Shown: positions 16,552 through 27,876 of the stretch, in pieces
Layout: each line of letters starts with the position of its first letter
How positions within the stretch are numbered: the stretch's first letter is position 1
NCBI GenBank assembly: GCA_947469885.1
Contig: CANIQT010000014.1
Span: 44,305 to 108,304, forward strand
Direction: 5' to 3'
DNA length: 64,000 bases
Origin: Bacteroidota bacterium
GTDB taxonomy: Bacteria; Bacteroidota; Bacteroidia; 2-12-FULL-35-15
Notes under the pieces: generated by a model
Databases searched by the model: none
What the model was told of the DNA's origin: nothing
What the model saw: only the letters and a program-made list of their open reading frames with translations
Translations under genes and position numbers: made by a program

Positions 16552-17124
16552 ATGAAAAAGAAAAACTTTTATTTAATGACAGTTGGTATAGTATTATTGG
16601 CTGCATCATGCAATTCGGGCGATACTTCGCCTGCTACAACAACAGCGGAAACAACAAGTGCAAACGTTCCATTAACAGGACAATCAGGAGTGGCTGATGA
16701 TGTATCAGCAAAAAACATTGTTCAAACAGCAGTGGGAAGTAAAGACCACACCACACTGGTGGCTGCCGTAAAAGCTGCTGAATTAGTTGATGTATTGAGC
16801 AATACAGGACCATTTACTGTATTTGCTCCAACAAATGCTGCATTTGAAAAACTGCCGGCAGGAACTGTTGAAGGTTTGCTAAAACCTGAAAAGAAAGAAG
16901 ATTTGCAGGACATTTTGCAATATCACGTTTCGGTAGGAGTGTACCAGGCAGATGCTTTGCAAGATGGTCAAACACTAGGTCAGGTGAATGGTGGTAATAT
17001 TAAAATCACAAAAAAAGACGGAAAGATTATGGTGAATGGTACTGCCACTGTGCTTGCTTCAATTCAAACAAGCAATGGTGTTATTCATTTTATTGACGGT
17101 GTATTGCTTCCGCCTAAGCAATAG
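16552..17124 (+). CDS. Fasciclin (FAS1) domain lipoprotein
   Basis: 190 aa. Lipoprotein signal (LLAASCNS). HTTLVAAVKAAELVDVL and FTVFAPTNAAF are canonical FAS1 boxes. Confidence 0.85.
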   Translation: MKKKNFYLMTVGIVLLAASCNSGDTSPATTTAETTSANVPLTGQSGVADDVSAKNIVQTAVGSKDHTTLVAAVKAAELVDVLSNTGPFTVFAPTNAAFEKLPAGTVEGLLKPEKKEDLQDILQYHVSVGVYQADALQDGQTLGQVNGGNIKITKKDGKIMVNGTATVLASIQTSNGVIHFIDGVLLPPKQ

Positions 17125-17151
17125 TTTTGGTTTATAATTAGTATCTGAAAA

Positions 17152-17181
17152 AGCGTAAACATATTGTTTACGCTTTTTTTT
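17152..17181. terminator. Bidirectional rho-independent terminator between the fasciclin gene and the nos operon end
   Basis: Hairpin AGCGTAAACA-tatt-TGTTTACGCT flanked by an A-run and a T-run. Confidence 0.65.
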
Positions 17182-17217: not shown

Positions 17218-17589
17218 TCAGGGTATAAGTTTTATTTGCATCACCGTGGAGATACTTAATGCCCGCTGTTTAGCAAGTTCAGCATTAGGTCCTTCAAATA
17301 ATTCATCCACGGTTTGAATGAATAATCTTTCCCATTGCTCAAAATGTTCTTTTGTAAGTGGACTGATACGGCTGAGATGACGATGAATATTCATAGTATC
17401 ACCTGTATAACCACCTGTGTAGAATAACGCATTTCCCCAAAAACTATACATAACAGGCAAATGTTTCTCCCAGTTTACCTTTACAACATCATTAAAAATA
17501 TAACCAATTACGGAGTCTTCTTTTACTTTATCGTAAAACAAATTAATTAGCTGTTCAATATCTTCTCTGTTTAATAAATCTGTTTTCAT
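17218..17589 (-). CDS. Truncated hemoglobin (group II/III trHb-like globin), last gene of the nos operon
   Basis: 123 aa. Pattern FY...V..D..IGYIF ... GGYTG ... NIHRHL ... F..W consistent with a trHb fold. It lies 14 bp downstream of nosY. Confidence 0.55.
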   Translation of the reverse strand: MKTDLLNREDIEQLINLFYDKVKEDSVIGYIFNDVVKVNWEKHLPVMYSFWGNALFYTGGYTGDTMNIHRHLSRISPLTKEHFEQWERLFIQTVDELFEGPNAELAKQRALSISTVMQIKLIP

Positions 17590-17603
17590 TTTCTATTACT
17601 ATT

Positions 17604-18371
17604 TTACAAATCTTTTCTTTTAAATTTAGCTAGCGACAACTTAAGCGGAACGATTACCCATAATACTAAAACGGAAAGTGCGGTAACAAAACCAACATTG
17701 GTTCCGAAAAAATCCTTGAATACAGCTCCTGTATATCCCATCAATGCAGAAACATCCAACCTTAACAAAATAACAATACGGCTTAAGTCTATTGGATTGA
17801 AACCACTTATAACCATCATTGGCTTTTCGAGCGGATAGTCTGAAAATTGAAAAAGAAGAAATAAAATCAGACCGTCAAAAATTAAAGCAAAATACAACCA
17901 AAGAAGAATTGAAACACCTATCCCTTTAGCCTTGTCTCGCGAAGAAACCGCAGCAAGCAATGCAATGGCGACAAAAATAACTGAAAGTAATGAGCCAACA
18001 ATAGCCATTATCAAACCAGTTACAGTTGGTTCATATATCAGTAACGGAACACCTGCACCAATTAAAAATGCTAAGGAAAGCGATGCAGATAAACCATAAA
18101 ATAAACTCAGCCATATTTGCTTCCTCCGCAAAGGTTGACTTAGCAGTAATTCGATAAATTCAGAACTATTGTAAACATATATAGTTGAAAATATAATTGA
18201 AACTAATGGCACAATGAATAAAACTAAATTTAATAAACTTAATAATCCCTTGGCTGTATTATCCTCGAGGCTAAATACGCTGAAGGAAATAATGAATAAA
18301 ATAAAAGTATATGCTAATACAATTTTACTCCTCAGTATATCTATAACAACGTATTTAATTACCTTATTCAT
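17604..18371 (-). CDS. nosY: ABC-2 type permease NosY
   Basis: 255 aa, 6 TM helices, directly downstream of the nosF ATPase in the nos cluster. Confidence 0.75.
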   Translation of the reverse strand: MNKVIKYVVIDILRSKIVLAYTFILFIISFSVFSLEDNTAKGLLSLLNLVLFIVPLVSIIFSTIYVYNSSEFIELLLSQPLRRKQIWLSLFYGLSASLSLAFLIGAGVPLLIYEPTVTGLIMAIVGSLLSVIFVAIALLAAVSSRDKAKGIGVSILLWLYFALIFDGLILFLLFQFSDYPLEKPMMVISGFNPIDLSRIVILLRLDVSALMGYTGAVFKDFFGTNVGFVTALSVLVLWVIVPLKLSLAKFKRKDL

Positions 18372-19083
18372 TAATCAGTGTTTTGGCCATAACATTTGCA
18401 ATAGCTTTAGATAATTTTTGTTCACCTGTTTCAGTACGCAACACTTCAATATCTTTATGAAATATTAATTTCCCATCTTGAATGTATATAATTTGAGTTA
18501 CAATATCATCCAACTCGGAAAGCACATGAGAGGTAATAAGGACAAGTTTGCCTTTTTGTTTTTCTTTAATTATTTTTTCTCTTAAAATTTCAGCTGCAAG
18601 TGGATCAAGACCTGCGGTTGGCTCATCAAGTATTAGAACTTCAGCATTAAACAAAAAAGCGAATAAGGCAGAAACCTTTTGACGTGTTCCTCCTGACAAT
18701 GTTCGCATACGCTTGTCAAGCATTTTGTCTAATTGAAAACTATATAACAATTCTTCATCAATGTTATTTTTATTCTCCCTTCGAATATCTTTCATCATTT
18801 TTATGAGTTGGCCAATGGTCATATTATCAGGATAACGACCTATCTGAGGCATGTAACCAATTTGAGAACGGTACATCCAGTTTTTAGAAATAGTTTTATT
18901 GTTAAATAAAATATCTCCAGAGTCTGGCACTACCAAGCCAAGAATAGATTTAATAAATGTTGTTTTTTCGCTTCCGTTCGGACCAATCAATGCAATACAC
19001 TCACCTGCGTTGCAAGTGATATTTATTGAATCCAAAGCCACCAGCTTCCCAAAATGTTTTGAAATATTTTTTGCAATAATCAT
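18364..19083 (-). CDS. nosF: ABC transporter ATP-binding protein NosF
   Basis: 239 aa. Walker A (GPNGSEKTT), ABC signature (LSGGTRQK) and Walker B (LILDEPT). Confidence 0.85.
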   Translation of the reverse strand: MIIAKNISKHFGKLVALDSINITCNAGECIALIGPNGSEKTTFIKSILGLVVPDSGDILFNNKTISKNWMYRSQIGYMPQIGRYPDNMTIGQLIKMMKDIRRENKNNIDEELLYSFQLDKMLDKRMRTLSGGTRQKVSALFAFLFNAEVLILDEPTAGLDPLAAEILREKIIKEKQKGKLVLITSHVLSELDDIVTQIIYIQDGKLIFHKDIEVLRTETGEQKLSKAIANVMAKTLINE

Positions 19084-20324
19084 AAAGACAAAGATTTCAT
19101 TAAAGGAGTTTCATCTTTTAAATTTTCAGGGGTAAGTGTGGGGATTATTTTCTCTGTTTTATCCAGCAACGAAACCATGATACTTCTAAATAAAATCATC
19201 GCTGGCGGGTTTTGCTCAATTATTACAGAAAACATACTTATGGGACGATAGGGTACATCACCTATATTATCTTCATTGATATCGTACCCTTCATATTTAT
19301 CCCAATAATTACTGTTAAATGAATTAAGAACCAAAGTACCATTGGTGCCAACATCAAAGGTATTACCAAAAAAATTGTTTTTTGTAACAGTAACATCCAT
19401 ACAACTTGCCTGAATTTTTATAGCCCATCCGTTAGATTCAAATATATTTTTCTGCATTTCGCATCTGCTTGCACCTTCCATATATATTCCAACAGTATTT
19501 TTTCTGAACTTGTTATTTATTATGTAACTATCTGAAATTTCTTTTAACAGCAAACCAAAAGCGGCATCCCCCCAATTTTCTTCAAAGGTATTATTAAACA
19601 TTTTAACTCCTGTGGTAAACATCACTGCAACACCTGCACCGTTATTTCTGAAAAGATTTGTTATGTAGGAATCTTTATTGGAAAACATAAAATGCAAACC
19701 ATACCGAATATTATCCGTAGAAATATTTCTCCAGATAATTGAGTTTGTCACAAATTCAAAATATATACCGTCACGATGCCCCGAAACAGTGTTACCAATT
19801 ATTTGCATACTATCGCATTTCCAGCAATGAATTCCATTTCCAATTTCCTGTTCCTGTTTACCGTATGATCTAAGTTGATTGTTTTTAATTACACAGTTCT
19901 TTCCATTTTGAGTATAAATTCCAAAAAAAGTATCATCAATAATATTATCTGAAATCGTAACTTTATGTGCATCATAAATTTTTATTCCAGCCGGGTCAAT
20001 TAAAGTTCCGTAGCCTGAATGTTGAATTTTAAATCCTGAGAACGTAACAAAACTAGACTTAATGGAAACTACCTCATATTTGTGTTCTCCATCAAGCACC
20101 GGATAATTAATTCCAATCATTTTAATTGATTTATCGACAATTAGATTATGTTCAAAATAAATACCTGAATTAACTATTATTGTATCGCCATTTGAGGATT
20201 GGTGAATAGCCTTTTGTATGGAATGAATAGAAAATTGTTTGCCAACATTAATTTGTGTTGCATTAGAACCTTGATGGAAAAATAAAATTAAAAAGAATGA
20301 TATTAAGATGATGCGGAGACACAT
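19080..20324 (-). CDS. nosD: Nitrous oxide reductase maturation protein NosD (periplasmic parallel beta-helix copper-binding protein)
   Basis: 414 aa. N-terminal signal, repeated right-handed beta-helix-like NN/GI motifs, and position between nosL and nosF. Confidence 0.8.
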   Translation of the reverse strand: MCLRIILISFFLILFFHQGSNATQINVGKQFSIHSIQKAIHQSSNGDTIIVNSGIYFEHNLIVDKSIKMIGINYPVLDGEHKYEVVSIKSSFVTFSGFKIQHSGYGTLIDPAGIKIYDAHKVTISDNIIDDTFFGIYTQNGKNCVIKNNQLRSYGKQEQEIGNGIHCWKCDSMQIIGNTVSGHRDGIYFEFVTNSIIWRNISTDNIRYGLHFMFSNKDSYITNLFRNNGAGVAVMFTTGVKMFNNTFEENWGDAAFGLLLKEISDSYIINNKFRKNTVGIYMEGASRCEMQKNIFESNGWAIKIQASCMDVTVTKNNFFGNTFDVGTNGTLVLNSFNSNYWDKYEGYDINEDNIGDVPYRPISMFSVIIEQNPPAMILFRSIMVSLLDKTEKIIPTLTPENLKDETPLMKSLSL

Positions 20325-20333
20325 TTATGAATA

Positions 20334-21356
20334 TTAATTAATTAACTGATCCCATGTAACTGCTTGTCCCTTTAATTTTTCGGTGTATAATTTCAAACTA
20401 TCGTTACTAGAGTATGCTGCAATATTTCCACCCATTGGGCTTTTAAGTTCATCGCTCTTTAGCAAAAAAATGTTAGATTGAATAAATAACTGATGAGAGG
20501 AACAAAAATCTGTGAAATAAACATCTTTAATATCTGCTTTTTTCAAGTTACCTTCTTTAATATAAATCAACAAACAATTTATATCATCAAACTTAAATAC
20601 CTTTCCTTTATTAGTAATAGCTTCTGCTCCATATTTGATGTCACTTATTGTCATTTTACAAAACTGACAATTGTCAATTCCTATTTTTATTTGTTGAGGA
20701 GCAGAGGAGCAAGCTGAAATAAAAAGCAAAACAAAAAATAATACAGGAGTCATAGTCAACATATTATTTTTTTTGAATTTCCTGAATTTAAAAAAGTCAG
20801 CCAATGAACTAAATAACAAAACGGCACCTGCTTCTAAAAATATCCATCCACCAACATCCGGAACAGAGTATGCACCAAAATTAAGTAATTGTTTAAAGCC
20901 AATTAATGGTGGTTGATAAGCCATACCTGGAACAATAATGGCAGCTTCCGGATTAAGATTATGCCCATAATTATATTCCCATCTCCAAAAATCAACCATT
21001 GCAATAATACCAAAACAAACAAACAAAAAGCAAAGTATATACATTAGTTTTCTATTACCAATAATTCCAACGGCAACAAAAAACGCTGCAAAAAACATTA
21101 TGATATAGGGAAGAATTGCGAATTCAACAAAATCATCTTTTTGAAGTGTTTTCATTCCTATATAGTGATTAAGTCCATTAATTATATTCACGTTGCCCCC
21201 TAGTGTATGCGGATAGATAAGCAAACGTAAACCCTCCGGATACTGAGGTGCGTCCAAATCAATCCGCCACATGGGAACAAATAAAACCACTATAAGTAAT
21301 AAACCGGATAGAGACAAAATAATTCTAATCCAGTTTTGCATGGGATACTTTTTCAT
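20334..21356 (-). CDS. nosL: Fusion of a 5-TM membrane protein with a NosL-like copper chaperone domain
   Basis: 340 aa. The N-terminal 190 aa are polytopic membrane. An internal lipoprotein-like signal (MLTMTPVLFFVLLFISACSS) precedes a NosL-like C-terminal domain, in the same frame with no stop. Confidence 0.6.
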   Translation of the reverse strand: MKKYPMQNWIRIILSLSGLLLIVVLFVPMWRIDLDAPQYPEGLRLLIYPHTLGGNVNIINGLNHYIGMKTLQKDDFVEFAILPYIIMFFAAFFVAVGIIGNRKLMYILCFLFVCFGIIAMVDFWRWEYNYGHNLNPEAAIIVPGMAYQPPLIGFKQLLNFGAYSVPDVGGWIFLEAGAVLLFSSLADFFKFRKFKKNNMLTMTPVLFFVLLFISACSSAPQQIKIGIDNCQFCKMTISDIKYGAEAITNKGKVFKFDDINCLLIYIKEGNLKKADIKDVYFTDFCSSHQLFIQSNIFLLKSDELKSPMGGNIAAYSSNDSLKLYTEKLKGQAVTWDQLIN

Positions 21357-21424
21357 TTTACAAATTTAAGAGGAAATAAAAAAAGTGTGAGTTAAAGAAC
21401 ATTTTAACTCACACTTAGGGATAA

Positions 21425-23419
21425 TTATTTTTTATCGGAATTTTCAGCTGAAGCAATATTTTTTCCAGTACTGAACATTAAAGGAACATTGCTACCCGCA
21501 GGTGACACTCGCACATATCCTTGCATCTCCTGATGCAATGCACTGCAAAAATCCGTGCAATACATTGGTGAAATTCCAACTCTATCGGGAGTCCATTTAA
21601 GTGTTTGCGTTTCCCCTGGCATAATTAATAATTCTCCATTAGTTGCACCTTTGATTGCAAAACCATGAGGAACATCCCAATCCTGTTCAAGATTTGTAAC
21701 ATGAAAATAAACTTCATCACCAATTCTAATTCCTTCAATATTATCAGGAGTAAGGTGAGAACGAATAGCAGTCATATAAACATCTACTCTGTTTTTATCT
21801 CTAACCACCTTTGTTGTACCTTCTCCCATCGAAACATAAGGATTTTTGTTTTCATCAATTTTAAATATTTTAGTACAGTTGTTTTTAAGTAAATCCGCAG
21901 GGCAAATTTGAGCATAGTGAGGCTCTCCAATTGTTGGAAAATCTAAAATCATTTGCATTTTGTCACCACTGATATCAAACAATTGGGCACTTTGAGAAAG
22001 TTCAGGACCTGTAGGCAAATAACGGTCTTTGGTAATCTTATTATATGCAACCAAATATTTTCCGTTTGGAGTTTTTGTATCACCACCAGCAACACACAAA
22101 TGTCCAACAGAATAAAAAGTAGGAGCACGATCAACAACTTTTAAATCTTTGATATTCCATTTAACAACTTCAGATGAAACAAAAAAGGATGTATAAGCAT
22201 TTCCTTTATTATCAAATTCTGTATGAAGAGGTCCTAATCCTGGTTTTTTAACTTCACCGTATAATGCAGACTCATATTTAATTACTGGAATACCATCAAA
22301 ATCACCAGCATAATCCTTAGCAGCTATTGCTTTTTGTATTTTATCAAAGCTGAAAACTGGAATTATAGCAGCCAACTTACCACTACCAACAATATATTCT
22401 CCAGTAGGATTTACATCACAACCGTGAGGTGATTTAGGACAAGGAATAAAATAACACATGTCTTTCAACTCTTTCGAATCTAGAACAATAACTTCTGTCT
22501 TAATTTCTGATGTTGCTGAATGCGTTTTATCGCTATATGTATTATGAGCATATTTTGCGGCAACTTTTCTTCCTTTGCCTGCAGCGAGATATTCTTCTGC
22601 TTTTTTCCAATTCACAGCCATAATGAAATCTTTGTCTTTTTGCGAAGCATTTACTTCCAACAAAGTGTTAGCCTGTTCAGTATTATAACAGGAAAAGAAA
22701 AACCAACCATGAGAAACTCCCTTTCCAGCGCGACTTAAATCGAAGTTTACTCCCGGACATTGAATTTGAAAGGCAATATCCAATTTACCATCTTCTTTAC
22801 CAACACTAATAAAACTTAAATAACCTTTAAAGTTTTGTTTATAAGTATTAATTGGAACGTCACCATTTGCATCATCAGCAGGAACACTGAAACGGGTTCC
22901 AGCCACAACATATTCTGTGTTCTCTGTAATGAAAGGTGAAGAGTGATTTCCTGCACTGTTTGGCAACTCAATAATTTCTGCAGTTCGGAATGTTTTTAAA
23001 TCAATACGAGCAACACGTGGAGTATTGTTTGCATTACCAAATGCCCAACGACCATCATAATCTCCATTAGTCTTAGAAAGCTGAACGTGATGTAAATCAT
23101 CCCAAGGAACAAAACCATGAGAAGTATTTAACATTGGTTTAGTTTCTTCCGAAAAACCCCAGCCTTTTTCAGGGTCAACTGAAAACACAGGAATTACACG
23201 TAGCAAACGACCAGAAGGAAGACCGTAAGCGCTCATTTGTCCACTGAAGCCACCGCTGACAAAATTATAAAACTCATCATATTTGCCTGGTGCTACATAA
23301 GCTTTTGAAGCAGCATCACCACTTACTGCGTTACTTACACTTTTTGGTTTACAAGAATTGAACGAAAATGCCACTGCAATAGCAGTTAAACCAAGCATAC
23401 TAATTTTCAAATTTTTCAT
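21425..23419 (-). CDS. nosZ: Nitrous oxide reductase NosZ, clade II (Sec-dependent)
   Basis: 664 aa. CuA site CTDFCSALHQEM at the C-terminus and a beta-propeller N-domain. The Sec/lipoprotein-like signal (rather than Tat) is typical of clade II. Confidence 0.95.
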   Translation of the reverse strand: MKNLKISMLGLTAIAVAFSFNSCKPKSVSNAVSGDAASKAYVAPGKYDEFYNFVSGGFSGQMSAYGLPSGRLLRVIPVFSVDPEKGWGFSEETKPMLNTSHGFVPWDDLHHVQLSKTNGDYDGRWAFGNANNTPRVARIDLKTFRTAEIIELPNSAGNHSSPFITENTEYVVAGTRFSVPADDANGDVPINTYKQNFKGYLSFISVGKEDGKLDIAFQIQCPGVNFDLSRAGKGVSHGWFFFSCYNTEQANTLLEVNASQKDKDFIMAVNWKKAEEYLAAGKGRKVAAKYAHNTYSDKTHSATSEIKTEVIVLDSKELKDMCYFIPCPKSPHGCDVNPTGEYIVGSGKLAAIIPVFSFDKIQKAIAAKDYAGDFDGIPVIKYESALYGEVKKPGLGPLHTEFDNKGNAYTSFFVSSEVVKWNIKDLKVVDRAPTFYSVGHLCVAGGDTKTPNGKYLVAYNKITKDRYLPTGPELSQSAQLFDISGDKMQMILDFPTIGEPHYAQICPADLLKNNCTKIFKIDENKNPYVSMGEGTTKVVRDKNRVDVYMTAIRSHLTPDNIEGIRIGDEVYFHVTNLEQDWDVPHGFAIKGATNGELLIMPGETQTLKWTPDRVGISPMYCTDFCSALHQEMQGYVRVSPAGSNVPLMFSTGKNIASAENSDKK

Positions 23420-23455
23420 AACGTTTTTTTATTATTTAGTTTAGTTTATTATTTT

Positions 23456-23956
23456 TTATTTTACTCCATCATTTTTACGCATAAATTCTAATAATGCTCT
23501 AGCATCATCGTCAGTTAGACTCTGATTAGGCATCCTAACGAGACAAATTTCCAATTGAGCTTGAGCAGCAGGGTCTTTATTAATCATTTCATCTGTATTG
23601 GTAATAAAATTCATAATCCAAGCTGGCTGATGACGACTAGTAACACCTATCCAACCTGGACCAACTAATTTTTCTGTGGTTAATTTATGACAAGCAGAAC
23701 ATTTAACGTCAAATGTTTTACTTCCTGCATCAGCCATTGCCACATCTAATTTTTCACTCAGTGCAACGTCTTTAAACTTTCCTTCTCCTCTTTTAGGATC
23801 ATATTTTTCAACACCAACTGAGGAAGGAGATTCTGCACTTGAAGCAGATGAATTGGATGATGTTGCCGCTTGATTTCCTTCTGATGAGTCACCTCCACAG
23901 GCAACAATAAAAAGCCCAAATGAACTTAGAATACTTATTGCTAATAATTTTTTCAT
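23456..23956 (-). CDS. Lipoprotein c-type cytochrome of clade II nos clusters (electron donor to NosZ)
   Basis: 166 aa. Lipoprotein signal (LFIVACGG), a single CSACH heme c motif, first gene of the nos operon. Confidence 0.8.
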   Translation of the reverse strand: MKKLLAISILSSFGLFIVACGGDSSEGNQAATSSNSSASSAESPSSVGVEKYDPKRGEGKFKDVALSEKLDVAMADAGSKTFDVKCSACHKLTTEKLVGPGWIGVTSRHQPAWIMNFITNTDEMINKDPAAQAQLEICLVRMPNQSLTDDDARALLEFMRKNDGVK

Positions 23957-24024: not shown

Positions 24025-24038
24025 ATGATTACAATCAT
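24025..24038. promoter_or_regulatory. FNR/DNR-like box aTGATtacaATCAt upstream of the nos operon
   Basis: TGAT-N4-ATCA palindrome centred about 75 nt upstream of the cyt c start codon on the minus strand. Confidence 0.5.
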
Positions 24039-24157: not shown

Positions 24158-24171
24158 ATGATATATATCAT
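24158..24171. promoter_or_regulatory. FNR/DNR-like box aTGATatatATCAt upstream of the Crp/Fnr regulator gene
   Basis: Perfect 14-bp palindrome TGAT-atat-ATCA centred 72 nt upstream of the regulator ATG. Confidence 0.5.
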
Positions 24172-24236: not shown

Positions 24237-24830
24237 ATGATAGATACAAATATATTATTAGCATGGGGTGCAACTTTTAAAAAATATTGCCAAGGAGACA
24301 TAATTTTTGAAGAAGGGGCAAGTTGCAATTTCTATTTTCAATTAATTGAAGGTAGAGTTAAATGGGTAAATTTTAATAGTGAAGGGAAAGAGTTTATTCA
24401 AACTATAATTGAACCTAATGAGAGTTTTGGAGAACTTCCCCTATTCGATGAAGGTCCTTATGCAGCTTGTGCTATCGCAGATGAAGATTGCTTGATAATG
24501 AGATTGAAAAAAGAAACTTTTACTCAATTAATATGTGAAAATTCTGATATAAATTTAAGTTTTACAAAGTTACTTGCAAAACGTCAACGATATGAATTTT
24601 TACTTTTAAAAACCATTGCGTTTGAAAATCCAGAAAAAAGGATTTCAACCTTACTCACACATTTTAAAAACAAACAAGTAAATACAAATCGCCAACTTTA
24701 CCAAGTAAATCTTACCCGACAACAAATCGCCAATATGACTGGTTTGAGAGTAGAAACAGTTATTCGAGAAATCCGAAATTTGAATTTAAAAGGTCGCCTG
24801 CAAATAATTCATGGAAAAGTTTTTGTTTAA
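24237..24830 (+). CDS. Crp/Fnr family transcriptional regulator (likely NO/denitrification regulator, NnrR/DNR-like)
   Basis: 197 aa. N-terminal cNMP-binding beta-roll (FGELPLFDEGPY) and C-terminal HTH (TRQQIANMTGLRVETVIREI). No FNR-type Cys cluster. Confidence 0.8.
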   Translation: MIDTNILLAWGATFKKYCQGDIIFEEGASCNFYFQLIEGRVKWVNFNSEGKEFIQTIIEPNESFGELPLFDEGPYAACAIADEDCLIMRLKKETFTQLICENSDINLSFTKLLAKRQRYEFLLLKTIAFENPEKRISTLLTHFKNKQVNTNRQLYQVNLTRQQIANMTGLRVETVIREIRNLNLKGRLQIIHGKVFV

Positions 24831-24890: not shown

Positions 24891-26126
24891 ATGGAACAAA
24901 CTTTACATAAATGGATTCGAATTGCTATTATTAATCTTAATATTATTGCGTTTATAGGAATCATTTTAAGATATAAAATTGCTTTCTCACTTCCGTTCAT
25001 TGATCAAAAACATTTATTACATGGTCATTCACATTTTGCTTTTGCAGGTTGGGTAACTCAAGCATTAATGATATTAATGGTTGCTTTCTTGTATTCTAAA
25101 GGGTTAAAAAATTCTTTCAAAAAGTACTTCTGGTTACTCCTTTTTAATTTACTAACTGCATACGGAATGTTGATTTCTTTTCCAATAGAGGGTTACGGAC
25201 TTTTCTCGATAACCTTTTCTACTCTTTCCATTTTCGTGTCTTACTTTTTTGCTGTGATTTTTTGGAAAGATTTGAATAGCCTAAAATCAACTTCTTCAAG
25301 CCATCTATGGTTCAAAGCCGCTATAATACTAAATTCAATTTCTTCTCTTGGAGCATTTGCATTGGCATTTATGATGGCTAAACATATTATACATCAAAAC
25401 TGGTATTTATCCTCTGTTTATTATTATCTGCATTTTCAATATAACGGATGGTTCTTTTTCGCTTGTATCGGCCTTCTTATTGATAAATTAGAATCTTATA
25501 AAATTTACAGTAAATTATACAAATTAATTTTCTGGCTTTTCTTTATCGCTTGTTTCCCTGCATATTTTTTGTCTACTTTATGGATGTCAATTCCAACTTG
25601 GACTTACATTATAGTTATACTTTCAGCAATAACGCAGGTTGTAGCCTGGTTTTTACTTATAAGAATAATGTATCATAATCTAGATACTTTGAATAGGGTT
25701 ACTACATTAGCATCAAAATGTTTGTTTTCTTTATCTGCGTTTGCACTATCTGTTAAGTTTCTTTTACAATTAGGTTCAACCTATCCTTCTTTAAGTACAT
25801 TAGCTTTTGGATTTCGTCCAATCGTAATTGGGTATTTGCATTTGGTCTTACTTGGTGCTATAACAATTTTTATTATTGGATATTTGGTAGCAAGAAATTT
25901 TGTTTCGATGAAGCGAAAATCCATTTTCGGTATGTGTATTTTTGTTTTTGGTATCATTTTTAATGAAATACTTTTGATGACTCAGGGTATTGCTGGTTTA
26001 AAATATGAAAGTGTTCCATTTACAAATGAATTACTTCTAATTGCGTCCATAATTATGTTTTCTGGAATATTGCTATTTGTTATAGGGCAGTACAAAAACA
26101 AATTACAATTACAAAATTCCGAATGA
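24891..26126 (+). CDS. Polytopic membrane protein, probable NnrS family (heme-copper NO-response protein)
   Basis: 411 aa, about 12 TM helices. The HGHSHFAFAG motif resembles the NnrS HxHExxFGF copper site. Translationally coupled (ATGA overlap) to norC. Confidence 0.45.
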   Translation: MEQTLHKWIRIAIINLNIIAFIGIILRYKIAFSLPFIDQKHLLHGHSHFAFAGWVTQALMILMVAFLYSKGLKNSFKKYFWLLLFNLLTAYGMLISFPIEGYGLFSITFSTLSIFVSYFFAVIFWKDLNSLKSTSSSHLWFKAAIILNSISSLGAFALAFMMAKHIIHQNWYLSSVYYYLHFQYNGWFFFACIGLLIDKLESYKIYSKLYKLIFWLFFIACFPAYFLSTLWMSIPTWTYIIVILSAITQVVAWFLLIRIMYHNLDTLNRVTTLASKCLFSLSAFALSVKFLLQLGSTYPSLSTLAFGFRPIVIGYLHLVLLGAITIFIIGYLVARNFVSMKRKSIFGMCIFVFGIIFNEILLMTQGIAGLKYESVPFTNELLLIASIIMFSGILLFVIGQYKNKLQLQNSE

Positions 26127-26536
26127 AACACTACTGGAAAATATATTTTTTTACTTTACTCCAAATTGGTTTCTTTATCTATTCATATATTTTATATTCT
26201 TCAAATTCCTTCCAATATCGAAACGACTACAAAAGTTCGTCTGCTCAACAAGGAGAGCTAGTTTGGCAAAAATACAATTGCCAGAGTTGCCATCAAATGT
26301 ACGGCCTAGGTGGGTATTTAGGACCTGACTTAACAAATGTAATTTCAGTAAAAGGGAAAAACAATAACTACATTCTAGCAATAATAAAATCAGGCTCCAT
26401 CCAAATGCCTTCGTTTAATTTAAGTGACGTTGAAAAAATAAATTTAATTGAATTCCTTAAATCAACTGATGCAAGTGGAAAGGCAGATCCAAGAAGTTTC
26501 GATTCACAATTCACAGGTATGATATCTAATAAATGA
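26123..26536 (+). CDS. norC: Nitric oxide reductase cytochrome c subunit NorC
   Basis: 137 aa. N-terminal membrane anchor and the GELVWQKYNCQSCHQMYGLGGYLGPDLTNV heme c region. The 4-bp overlap with the next ORF (heme-copper oxidase subunit I-like) indicates translational coupling. Confidence 0.75.
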   Translation: MKHYWKIYFFTLLQIGFFIYSYILYSSNSFQYRNDYKSSSAQQGELVWQKYNCQSCHQMYGLGGYLGPDLTNVISVKGKNNNYILAIIKSGSIQMPSFNLSDVEKINLIEFLKSTDASGKADPRSFDSQFTGMISNK

Positions 26537-27876
26537 AAACCACTAATGAATATAGTATTGGAGAATACTTTATAGCTGTTGCCCTTATAATGCTAATATT
26601 TGGATTAATTTTCGGTGTACTTGCTTCTGCTAATTATATCTTTCCAGCGTATTCCAAAAATTGGTTGGGTTTTGTCCAACTTCGCCCGCTACATGTTTCA
26701 AGCATTATGTTTTTTATTTTGATAGGCGCAAGTGGTTGTGTTTATAGTAGTTTTAATATCATCTCTCCATATAAAATAAATAATTCATTAGCAAAACTTC
26801 AATTAGGATGTTGGATCCTTTCGATCATTTTCATATTATTTTCTTATTTCAATTCCAAATTCGGAGGGAGAGAGTATTGGGAGTTCCCTCCTAAGTATGC
26901 TATTTTAATAGCGTTTACCTGGTTGTTATTTATTATTAATGTTATTCGAATTATTAGAGAAACAAAAGAAAAACCAGTTTATATTTGGATGTGGGCCACA
27001 GGAATTTTCTTTTTTATTCTCACATTTTCCGAAAATTATCTTTGGCAGTTTCCTTATTTCCGAGAACATTTTGTAAAAGATATGACAATTCAATGGAAGG
27101 CAAATGGCTCCCTTGTAGGTTCTTGGAATCAATTAATCTACGGTACATCCTTTTTTTTAATCGAGAAAATAAGTAAAAATAAATCATATGCTAAATCTAA
27201 TTTAGCGTTCGTTATGTATTTTCTTGGGTTGTTTAATCTGATGTTTAATTGGGGGCATCACATTTATACACTACCTACAGACAGCTACGTGCGTTATGTT
27301 AGTTATATAGTAAGTATGACAGAATGGATTTTCCTTGCACGAATAATTTATACCTTCAGAAAAAATTTAACCGAAGCACAAAAGTTATTTCATCATTTCC
27401 CTTATCGCTTTTTATTTGCTTCCGAAATATGGGTATTCTTAAATTTATCTCTTGCACTTGTTATGTCAGTACCTGCTTTTAATTTATATACACACGGAAC
27501 TCATGTTACTGTAGCACATGCTATGGGCACTACAATTGGGATAAATACGATGATATTGCTGGGAGCTTGTTTCGAGTTTTTAAAACCAGAAACCGATTTA
27601 TTATCTAATGGCTCAAAATTGCTAAAGTTCTTTTTCTGGAGCTTTCAAATAACACTTTTTGTTTTTTGGATAACTCTAATAATCATGGGAATTAAAAAAG
27701 GTTTATGGCAAATGGGAAATCAGTCTGATTCGTTCAACATGATGATGAGCACGCTACATGGAGAGTTTCAAGTATTTGTTGTTTCAGGGTTTATGCTCAT
27801 GATTTCATTAGTGGTAATAATTATTTCATTGCTTAATTCATTTTTTAGAAATCATTTTCAATTCAAAACAATATAA
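26533..27876 (+). CDS. norB: Nitric oxide reductase large subunit NorB (heme-copper oxidase family, cNOR type)
   Basis: 447 aa, 12 TM. Conserved His pairs (WGHHIYT; HGTHVTVAHAMGT) in helices expected for FeB/heme ligation. Confidence 0.75.
   Translation: MKTTNEYSIGEYFIAVALIMLIFGLIFGVLASANYIFPAYSKNWLGFVQLRPLHVSSIMFFILIGASGCVYSSFNIISPYKINNSLAKLQLGCWILSIIFILFSYFNSKFGGREYWEFPPKYAILIAFTWLLFIINVIRIIRETKEKPVYIWMWATGIFFFILTFSENYLWQFPYFREHFVKDMTIQWKANGSLVGSWNQLIYGTSFFLIEKISKNKSYAKSNLAFVMYFLGLFNLMFNWGHHIYTLPTDSYVRYVSYIVSMTEWIFLARIIYTFRKNLTEAQKLFHHFPYRFLFASEIWVFLNLSLALVMSVPAFNLYTHGTHVTVAHAMGTTIGINTMILLGACFEFLKPETDLLSNGSKLLKFFFWSFQITLFVFWITLIIMGIKKGLWQMGNQSDSFNMMMSTLHGEFQVFVVSGFMLMISLVVIIISLLNSFFRNHFQFKTI

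Follow-up and report, generated by a model that had tools for sequence, protein, structure and literature searches.

A group III truncated hemoglobin gene at the 3' end of a clade II nos cluster in Bacteroidota

Gene content of the cluster and its 3' end

The DNA analysed is a stretch of 64,000 nucleotides (hereafter the window) from a Bacteroidota bacterium, and the features considered are listed in Table 1. The initial annotation had read the locus as a cyt c-nosZ-membrane::nosL-nosD-nosF-nosY operon followed by a globin gene. All seven open reading frames lie in this order on the minus strand and domain scans agree with their assignments; the globin gene closes a clade II nos cluster. NosZ reached 927 bits with the model for Sec-dependent nitrous-oxide reductases (TIGR04246, cut-off 625) and 365 bits with the Tat-type model TIGR04244, and no RR motif could be read in its N-terminus, MKNLKISMLGLTAIAVAFSFNSC. 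The genes nosL, nosD, nosF and nosY share one transcription direction, and consecutive genes overlap or follow one another closely. The neighbouring genes covered by the scans included neither nosR nor nosX, and a RIC-type gene was absent from the window. The convergent fasciclin gene is syntenic with nos in relatives, where it is found at this place or between nosZ and nosL.

Table 1. Features of the nos locus, numbered from the first nucleotide of the window
Feature	Position	Strand	Basis or remark
Fasciclin-domain lipoprotein, convergent with the globin gene	16552..17124	+	domain scan, synteny
Terminator-like hairpin GAAAAAGCGTAAACA-TAT-TGTTTACGCTTTTTT	17147..17181		A-run before, T-run after
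Group III (Ctb-type) truncated hemoglobin, 123 aa	17218..17589	-	PDB sequence match, AF2 model, residue conservation
nosY-globin spacer, 14 nt, hairpin-free	17590..17603	-	sequence and hairpin scan
nosY, ABC-2 type permease, 255 aa	17604..18371	-	PF12679 (ABC2_membrane_2), 35 bits; synteny
nosF, ABC ATPase, 239 aa	18364..19083	-	PF00005
nosD, 414 aa	19080..20324	-	TIGR04247, 411 bits (cut-off 300)
membrane::nosL fusion, 340 aa	20334..21356	-	N-terminal membrane domain; NosL domain (PF05573) at residues 228-338
Second hairpin with T-run, just after nosZ and before membrane::nosL	21383..21416	-	possible partial terminator within the cluster
nosZ, clade II / Sec-dependent	21425..23419	-	lipoprotein-like N-terminus, no twin-arginine motif
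Monoheme cytochrome c lipoprotein, 166 aa, first gene of the cluster	23456..23956	-	domain scan and sequence
Palindrome ATGATTACAATCAT, Crp/Fnr-box-like	24025..24038		68 nt upstream of the cyt c start
Palindrome ATGATATATATCAT, second Crp/Fnr-box-like site	24158..24171		divergent promoter region
Crp/Fnr-family regulator, 197 aa, divergent from the nos cluster	24237..24830	+	PF00027 and PF13545

Between the last base of the nosY stop codon, at 17604, and the globin ATG at 17589 lie exactly the 14 nt that had been proposed. An A/T-rich near-match to the Bacteroidota -7 element is present just upstream of this ATG. Behind the globin gene, the hairpin, whose stem-loop spans 17147-17179, has a stem of 15 pairs, four of them G-C, and a loop of 3. 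Located between two convergent genes, it could act in both directions, in agreement with the bidirectional terminator suggested previously. The short gap, the lack of a hairpin ahead of the globin gene and the terminator behind it argue for co-expression with nos. Judging from the spacing, the globin gene would be transcribed together with nosL, nosD, nosF and nosY, and probably also with cyt c and nosZ, the latter being less certain because of the hairpin and T-run between nosZ and nosL. An internal promoter directly ahead of the globin gene is conceivable.

The last gene encodes a group III truncated hemoglobin

The 123-aa product scores under the cut-off of the Pfam Bac_globin model (E=0.012, 16.2 bits, cut-off 21), so the assignment is not visible from Pfam alone and was settled by a sequence search of the PDB and by structure prediction. 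With phmmer, the best PDB match was 2ig3, the group III hemoglobin Ctb of Campylobacter jejuni (E=1.1e-14, residues 1-118). Chains of groups I and II matched far worse (best E=0.007-1.2), the sequence being nearer to group III than to either. The AlphaFold (AF2) model (pLDDT 92.5, pTM 0.87, six helices) predicts a 2-on-2 alpha-helical globin fold, and its top Foldseek match was again 2ig3 (TM 0.88, rmsd 1.7 A), other truncated hemoglobins giving TM values of 0.6-0.78.

The residues expected in the heme pocket are all present. The proximal histidine, H69, aligns with Ctb His72, and the adjacent H71 varies among the 123 homologues compared. Phe18 and Tyr19 (Phe-B9/Tyr-B10), His43 (E7), Phe50 (E14) and Trp86 (G8) also align with their Ctb counterparts and are kept in 120-123 of these homologues: His-F8, Trp-G8 and Phe-E14 in all 123, Tyr-B10 in 121 and His-E7 in 120. 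The gene thus codes for a single-domain, cytoplasmic truncated hemoglobin of group III whose heme pocket is the same as that of Ctb, and the globin fold and proximal histidine anticipated in the initial annotation are borne out. Two other globin types were rejected. A flavohemoglobin or NO dioxygenase of the Hmp type, in which the globin is fused to an FAD/NAD(P)H reductase, does not fit a lone 123-aa domain with no reductase attached, nor do the adjacent genes supply a reductase partner. A globin-coupled sensor or protoglobin does not fit either, as there is no second domain and the Pfam Protoglobin model matched only a fragment (E=0.038).

No signal peptide was found in the globin, whose alignment with the cytoplasmic Ctb runs from residue 1. 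Since NosZ is exported and periplasmic, the globin cannot shield it directly, and the buffering of O2 or NO suggested earlier cannot take place at NosZ itself. Any protection of NosZ would be indirect, through lower levels of cytoplasmic or diffusing NO or O2.

Linkage to nos in relatives and the adjoining Crp/Fnr regulator

Among 61 evaluable Bacteroidota nos clusters, counted as one genome per species, 42 carry the globin gene downstream of nosY on the same strand, so the proposal does not fall on an absence of the gene from the clusters of relatives. The gap is below 125 nt in 29 of these 42 clusters, values of 4-50 nt being typical. Conversely, nosY is directly upstream of the gene in 42 of 46 evaluable metagenomic globin relatives. 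Conservation of the post-nosY position extends over Chitinophagaceae, Saprospiraceae, Flavobacterium and Sphingobacteriales. Globin distances track NosY distances (r=0.51), a correlation no weaker than that between NosY and NosZ (r=0.37).

It could be argued that the globin gene merely happens to neighbour nosY, as it is missing from 19 of the 61 clusters, and as at least 3 of the 46 globin relatives sit in unrelated contexts. However, the same-strand adjacency persists across several families with short gaps, whereas the genes beyond the terminator differ among relatives, and with the great majority of globin relatives linked to nos we consider the absence of a functional link very unlikely. 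The 19 clusters without globin do indicate that the protein is dispensable for N2O reduction as such.

In some relatives, hemerythrin-like (PF01814), cupin (PF07883) or tryptophan-2,3-dioxygenase (TDO)-like (PF03301) genes are found between nosY and the globin gene, and in Dyadobacter a DUF2249-RIC iron-sulfur repair protein (TIGR03652, 235 bits) follows nosY in place of the globin. The slot behind nosY thus has a gas or nitrosative-stress theme. Full-text searches found no paper describing the nos-globin linkage, nor any description of hemerythrin-like, cupin, TDO-like, RIC or globin accessory genes in clade II nos clusters. The view that the globin is not a standard annotated nos component therefore holds for the literature; it does not hold for the gene product as such, as NCBI already names homologues 'group III truncated hemoglobin'.

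Upstream of the cluster, the divergent Crp/Fnr-family regulator gene is syntenic with nos in most relatives. Of 99 loci, 50 have the Crp-box core TGAT-N4-ATCA ahead of the cyt c gene, compared with an average of 1.1 in shuffled sequences; ahead of the globin gene, this core was seen in only 1 of 114 loci. The longer form ATGATN4ATCAT occurs three times in the 64-kb window, twice within the crp-cyt c spacer. As in NssR/Dnr/NnrR-like NO-responsive regulons, a Crp/Fnr-family regulator and a conserved palindromic box upstream of the operon are both present, and the control of nos may work in a similar way. These observations suggest that transcription of nos and globin is probably controlled by the adjoining regulator via the TGAT-N4-ATCA boxes.

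As read from the sequence, the regulator lacks the N-terminal cysteine cluster of the FNR type. A regulator that is encoded beside the cluster in most relatives, and whose sequence shows no obvious motif for a sensory cofactor, would leave room for the globin as a heme-based NO/O2 sensor, acting by protein-protein contact on this regulator or on another partner, and a sensor role had also been put forward in the initial annotation. Against this, the globin consists of one domain of 123 aa, with none for signal output, its gene stands at the operon end far from the regulator, and it is still found behind nosY in loci where crp is elsewhere. No signalling function is known for any group III truncated hemoglobin. 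The sensor role is unsupported by these data, and we regard it as improbable.

Proposed role and relation to known systems

With a probability of roughly one in two, we propose that the globin is a cytoplasmic NO/O2-reactive heme protein induced with nos, and that its gene belongs to the nos regulon as an accessory for stress management. Under the putative control of the Crp/Fnr regulator, it would be made exactly on the switch to N2O respiration, when O2 is low and NO is around. Its heme would bind O2 very tightly. The oxy form would react with NO, or else peroxynitrite or peroxide, and the ferrous heme would bind NO under anoxia. Freely diffusing NO or O2 would thereby be removed on the cytoplasmic side of the membrane, which would protect iron centres in the cytoplasm and, by an indirect route, the machinery of N2O respiration. 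A part in NosZ maturation or electron transfer is not envisaged.

Some features of studied homologues agree with such a role. Nitrosative stress induces both ctb and the Helicobacter pullorum truncated hemoglobin gene, ctb via the Crp/Fnr protein NssR; the H. pullorum oxy-TrHb reacts with NO at 3-9e5 M-1 s-1, and its overexpression rescues an E. coli hmp mutant (PMC5577044). In a Bradyrhizobium diazoefficiens NnrR mutant, the group III gene bll6222 is 17-fold down (PMC6710368). Against a strong NO detoxification, the ctb and H. pullorum mutants are not NO-sensitive and Ctb fails to rescue E. coli hmp (PMC5577044).

Oxygen management is another possible explanation, although we rate the odds as clearly against it: a globin of very high affinity would buffer or scavenge cytoplasmic O2, or pass it to a terminal oxidase, during N2O respiration at the oxic-anoxic boundary. 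The globin and Ctb have identical distal pockets (Tyr-B10, His-E7, Trp-G8), and the hemerythrin and TDO-like neighbours in the same slot belong to families known to bind O2. Moreover, the titles of Wainwright et al. 2005 and 2006 present Ctb as 'implicated in oxygen metabolism', and N2O-respiring methanotrophs raise the expression of group II/III truncated hemoglobin genes when conditions are suboxic or anoxic (PMC11102522). However, a micromolar stoichiometric binder that neither turns over catalytically nor is served by a reductase cannot hold down the O2 flux for long, the O2-sensitive target NosZ is in another compartment, and the RIC protein standing in for the globin in Dyadobacter speaks for nitrosative damage more than for O2.

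The globin and the hemerythrin-like, cupin or RIC genes sharing its slot might even form a dedicated accessory module that lets Bacteroidota reduce N2O despite O2 or NO; we put this forward only tentatively and consider it rather unlikely. If true, it would provide a genetic determinant of O2- and NO-tolerant N2O consumption in widespread soil, freshwater and wastewater bacteria, and a first clear physiological role for group III truncated hemoglobins. Bacteria with clade II NosZ, among them many Bacteroidota, count as a main biological sink for the greenhouse gas N2O, and what limits them near oxygen and nitric oxide is a practical question. The globin gene could mark N2O reducers that tolerate O2 or NO. 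After some twenty years of structural study, group III truncated hemoglobins have no settled function, because the Campylobacter and Helicobacter mutants show little phenotype; a clade almost invariably wired to nos gives them a concrete and testable setting, N2O respiration at low O2. Cultured carriers include Flavobacterium cucumis, F. xinjiangense, Flavihumibacter stibioxidans and Ferruginibacter lapsinanis, and related clusters without the globin gene, or with a RIC protein instead, offer natural controls.

Compared with other clade II nos clusters (Wolinella, Anaeromyxobacter, Bacteroidota), the cluster of the window has the same cyt c, Sec-type NosZ, NosL, NosD, NosF and NosY genes in one direction. 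It differs by the extra globin gene after nosY and by the fusion of NosL to a membrane domain, and its relatives differ by the hemerythrin-like, cupin, TDO-like or RIC genes of the post-nosY slot. The RIC / YtfE / ScdA / DnrN di-iron proteins of denitrification clusters occupy in Dyadobacter the very position of the globin, and the shorter hemerythrin-like genes of other relatives lie between it and nosY; the fold and cofactor of the RIC-type proteins, a di-iron four-helix bundle, are unrelated to those of a globin.

The truncated hemoglobin genes of B. diazoefficiens and Haloferax mediterranei are regulon members at separate loci, not inside a nos operon, and the Haloferax protein differs further in being a cyanoglobin, a group I truncated hemoglobin. 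They are comparable in that bll6222 expression follows the denitrification regulator NnrR (PMC6710368) and the H. mediterranei gene is induced during denitrification (PMC11218638, PMC10062603). The nearest counterpart is Ctb (Cj0465c, PDB 2ig3), a cytoplasmic single-domain protein of similar length, with which the window globin shares the fold (TM 0.88) and the pocket of proximal His, Tyr-B10, His-E7, Phe-E14 and Trp-G8, at 31% identity in the structural alignment. Ctb and the H. pullorum protein also share with it a tie to a Crp/Fnr-family regulator and nitrogen-oxide metabolism. The ctb gene stands alone, and C. jejuni is not known to have nosZ. Whereas ctb belongs to the nitrosative-stress regulon of NssR (PMC5577044), the window gene, in a different phylum, is fixed at the 3' end of the nos operon.

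Identity of the last gene of the nos cluster

The seven consecutive minus-strand ORFs that the initial annotation had described at 17218-23956 are all present exactly as listed (see the table), and the last of them, separated by 14 nt from the nosY stop, encodes the 123-aa product called here the globin. Pfam and NCBIfam scans of this protein gave no hit above threshold (Bac_globin, E=0.012, fell below the cut-off), and on family libraries alone it would stay 'hypothetical'. The PDB sequence search retrieved the group III truncated hemoglobin Ctb (Cj0465c) of Campylobacter jejuni (2ig3) over the full length with E=1.1e-14, followed by group I and II truncated hemoglobins with E values of at least 0.007. 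An AlphaFold model made with 34 homologues as input (pLDDT 92.5, pTM 0.87) had 2ig3 as its top structural match, with a TM of 0.88 and an rmsd of 1.7 Å. The globin fold proposed initially is borne out by this match, and so is the proximal histidine expected of it, as His69, which aligns with the proximal His of Ctb, is invariant across 123 homologues from related loci; the adjacent His71 varies freely. In the same alignment, Phe18/Tyr19, His43, Phe50 and Trp86 correspond to positions B9/B10, E7, E14 and G8 of Ctb, and the heme-pocket positions are kept in 120-123 of the 123 homologues. The N-terminus aligns with Ctb from residue 1 and has no hydrophobic signal, for which reason the globin is placed in the cytoplasm. 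On every sequence and structure test applied, the product is assigned to the group III truncated hemoglobins, with heme binding predicted, and 'group III truncated hemoglobin' is already the NCBI name for its close homologues.

Features of the nos cluster and its surroundings in the window
Feature	Position	Strand	Size	Basis or remark
Fasciclin-domain lipoprotein gene	16552-17124	+		
Hairpin 3' of the globin gene	17147-17179		15 pairs	A-run and T-run on its flanks
Globin gene	17218-17589	-	123 aa	Ctb-type
nosY		-		ABC-2 permease (domain scan)
nosF		-		ABC ATPase (domain scan)
nosD		-		TIGR04247, 411 bits
membrane::nosL	20334-21356	-	340 aa	Membrane N-terminus; NosL domain at residues 228-338
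Second hairpin with T-run	21383-21416	-	14 pairs	Immediately 3' of nosZ, ahead of membrane::nosL
nosZ		-	664 aa	TIGR04246, 927 bits (cut-off 625); Tat-type model just 365 bits
Cytochrome c gene		-	166 aa	Domain scans
Palindrome	24025-24038			ATGAT-N4-ATCAT
Palindrome	24158-24171			ATGAT-N4-ATCAT
Crp/Fnr-family regulator gene	24237-24830	+	197 aa	Domain scan
Multi-helix membrane protein gene	24891-26126	+	411 aa	First gene past the regulator
Membrane-anchored monoheme cytochrome c gene	26123-26536	+		Second gene past the regulator
Divergent heme-copper oxidase subunit I gene	26533-27876	+	447 aa	PF00115, 101 bits

The cluster in the window is an ordinary clade II nos operon for Bacteroidota, its NosZ being of the Sec-dependent type as judged from the domain-scan scores. 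The hairpin 3' of the globin gene faces the end of the convergent fasciclin-domain gene. Because of the hairpin and T-run behind nosZ, read-through into the accessory genes may be partial; this hairpin is a possible attenuator, which would yield more nosZ than accessory-gene transcript.

Two further observations concern the cluster in relatives (L-numbers denote related loci compared with the window). The membrane domain fused to NosL comprises about 200 aa, and in several relatives the NosL part may be split off or divergent, since tblastn matches only the N-terminal membrane part; besides the window, these observations cover L008, L013, L019, L050, L056, L057, L060 and L067. The fasciclin-domain lipoprotein gene is also syntenic with nos clusters (L025, L028, L032, L038, L047-L049, L052 and others), either convergent just past the globin gene, as in the window, or inserted between nosZ and nosL in their own orientation; no paper returned by our literature search connects fasciclin proteins with nos.

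Linkage to nosY and the variable slot

The NosZ of the window was scanned against GTDB with one genome per species, and the best 80 loci, all Bacteroidota-like, were kept. Among the 61 evaluable ones, in which nosY is complete and followed by 1.5 kb or more of sequence, a globin gene lies downstream of nosY on the same strand in 42, and the gap is <125 nt in 29 of these. Carriers include Chitinophagaceae, Ferruginibacter, Flavipsychrobacter, Flavihumibacter stibioxidans, Saprospiraceae, Sphingobacteriales and Flavobacterium (F. xinjiangense, F. cucumis); the Dyadobacter and Aquirufa nos loci examined have no globin. In the converse scan, of the globin alignment against metagenome contigs, nosY lies directly upstream of the globin relative in 42 of the 46 loci whose upstream sequence was long enough to judge; of the other four, three were inspected and show unrelated gene contexts. 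Moreover, the correlation between globin and NosY distances (r=0.51) is no weaker than that between NosY and NosZ distances (r=0.37). Taken together, these counts and correlations establish a genuine and old linkage that is specific to this globin clade. That the globin should be an accidental neighbour of nos is hardly credible. The correlation between globin and NosZ is weak (r=0.13), and we therefore do not argue for strict co-inheritance with nosZ from distances.

Five MAG loci (L034, L035, L040, L041, L075) carry Bacteroidota-type nos clusters, with NosZ 76-85% identical to that of the window, under the labels Bifidobacterium, Caulobacter, Sphingobacterium thalpophilum or Roseobacteraceae. 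Such labels probably reflect mistakes of labelling or binning in public records.

Where the nosY-globin gap of relatives measures 300-950 nt, it holds one of three genes: a hemerythrin-like gene (139-150 aa, PF01814; L020, L026, L038, L049, L081), a cupin gene of one of two subtypes (96-98 aa, PF07883 for one of them; L030, L041, L057, L058, L060, L108) or a gene for a tryptophan-2,3-dioxygenase-like heme protein (about 302 aa, PF03301; L021, L029). In Dyadobacter, with the globin absent, nosY is followed by a gene for a DUF2249-ScdA_N-hemerythrin protein (TIGR03652, 235 bits; L076, L078), that is, RIC, of iron-sulfur repair. The presence of these four gene types leads us to regard the 3' end of Bacteroidota nos clusters as a variable slot for small proteins with predicted roles in O2/NO binding or in repair of nitrosative damage. 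The hemerythrin-like gene also occurs in many metagenome loci.

The Crp/Fnr regulator and the divergent operon

The Crp/Fnr regulator gene, divergent from the cytochrome c gene, shows synteny with nos in the majority of relatives. Two of the three perfect ATGAT-N4-ATCAT palindromes of the 64-kb window (0.25 expected) lie in the 280-nt spacer between these genes, and they are likely to be the operator of the adjacent regulator. Of 99 related loci, 50 have the core TGAT-N4-ATCA no more than 300 nt upstream of the cytochrome c gene, where shuffled sequences gave 1.1 on average; ahead of the globin gene, it is present within 200 nt in just 1 of 114 loci. This difference fits a Crp/Fnr-controlled promoter at the cluster head, with no separate box for the globin. 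Strong enrichment is limited to the exact core, unlike the full FNR consensus TTGAT-N4-ATCAA, to which real and shuffled spacers match about equally (both typically 7-8 of 10 positions).

Three more genes follow the regulator in the divergent operon. Sequence searches of Pfam, NCBIfam and the PDB gave no match for the 411-aa membrane protein, which has >6000 homologues, every one named 'hypothetical'. Its AF2 model (pLDDT 86.5) shows the fold of heme-copper oxidase subunit I, with a TM of 0.72-0.74 to cbb3 CcoN and 0.71 to NorB, and His 46, 48, 181 and 317 are invariant; its gene, like that of the regulator, is syntenic with nos in most of the best 80 Bacteroidota loci. The 447-aa oxidase is about equally distant from cbb3 CcoN and NorB. 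In pairwise phmmer alignments it has Asn at the first CuB/FeB His and His-Ala-Met in place of the HxH heme-ligand pair, and it lacks the NorB Glu residues. Murali et al. 2024 describe an uncharacterised family related to cNOR, which they propose to be the membrane-bound N2O reductase of Flexibacter canadensis (PMC11214002); the 447-aa oxidase may be one of its members.

Function of the globin and comparison with known truncated hemoglobins

What is established for the globin is a Ctb-type heme pocket, a cytoplasmic location, fixed membership of the nos cluster and a Crp/Fnr box at the cluster head. The initial annotation had suggested that it could buffer O2 or NO for NosZ or act as a sensor. 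Direct shielding of NosZ is ruled out, as the globin has no signal peptide and NosZ is exported; with the two proteins in different compartments, any buffering would be indirect at most. The absence of an output domain rules out a globin-coupled sensor and makes the suggested sensor role very improbable, while the absence of a reductase domain rules out an NO dioxygenase of the flavohemoglobin type. We propose instead that the globin would be induced together with nos at low O2 and would deal with NO and/or O2 in the cytoplasm.

Known relatives bear on this proposal in both directions. Both ctb and its counterpart in Helicobacter pullorum, trHb, are induced by nitrosative stress; ctb is under the Crp/Fnr protein NssR, and similar regulation has been suggested for H. 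pullorum (PMC5577044). The oxygenated H. pullorum protein reacts with NO at 3-9e5 M-1 s-1 and, when overexpressed, rescues E. coli hmp (PMC5577044). A Bradyrhizobium group III trHb is strongly NnrR-dependent (PMC6710368), and truncated hemoglobins are up in Haloferax during denitrification (PMC11218638) and in N2O-respiring methanotrophs under suboxia or anoxia (PMC11102522). However, mutation of ctb or trHb does not make the bacteria sensitive to NO, and E. coli hmp is not rescued by Ctb, both of which speak against simple NO detoxification (PMC5577044). For these reasons we give NO/O2 scavenging by a globin co-expressed with nos a probability of about 0.5, and consider a purely O2-directed role rather unlikely.

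A full-text search covering part of the literature found no report of nos-globin operonic coupling or of a gas-stress slot past nosY, and the conserved coupling and the variable slot appear to be undescribed. With them, the long-open question of group III globin function becomes an experiment in tractable bacteria. The tie of truncated hemoglobins to denitrification regulons is already known, so that their linkage to nos is no great surprise.
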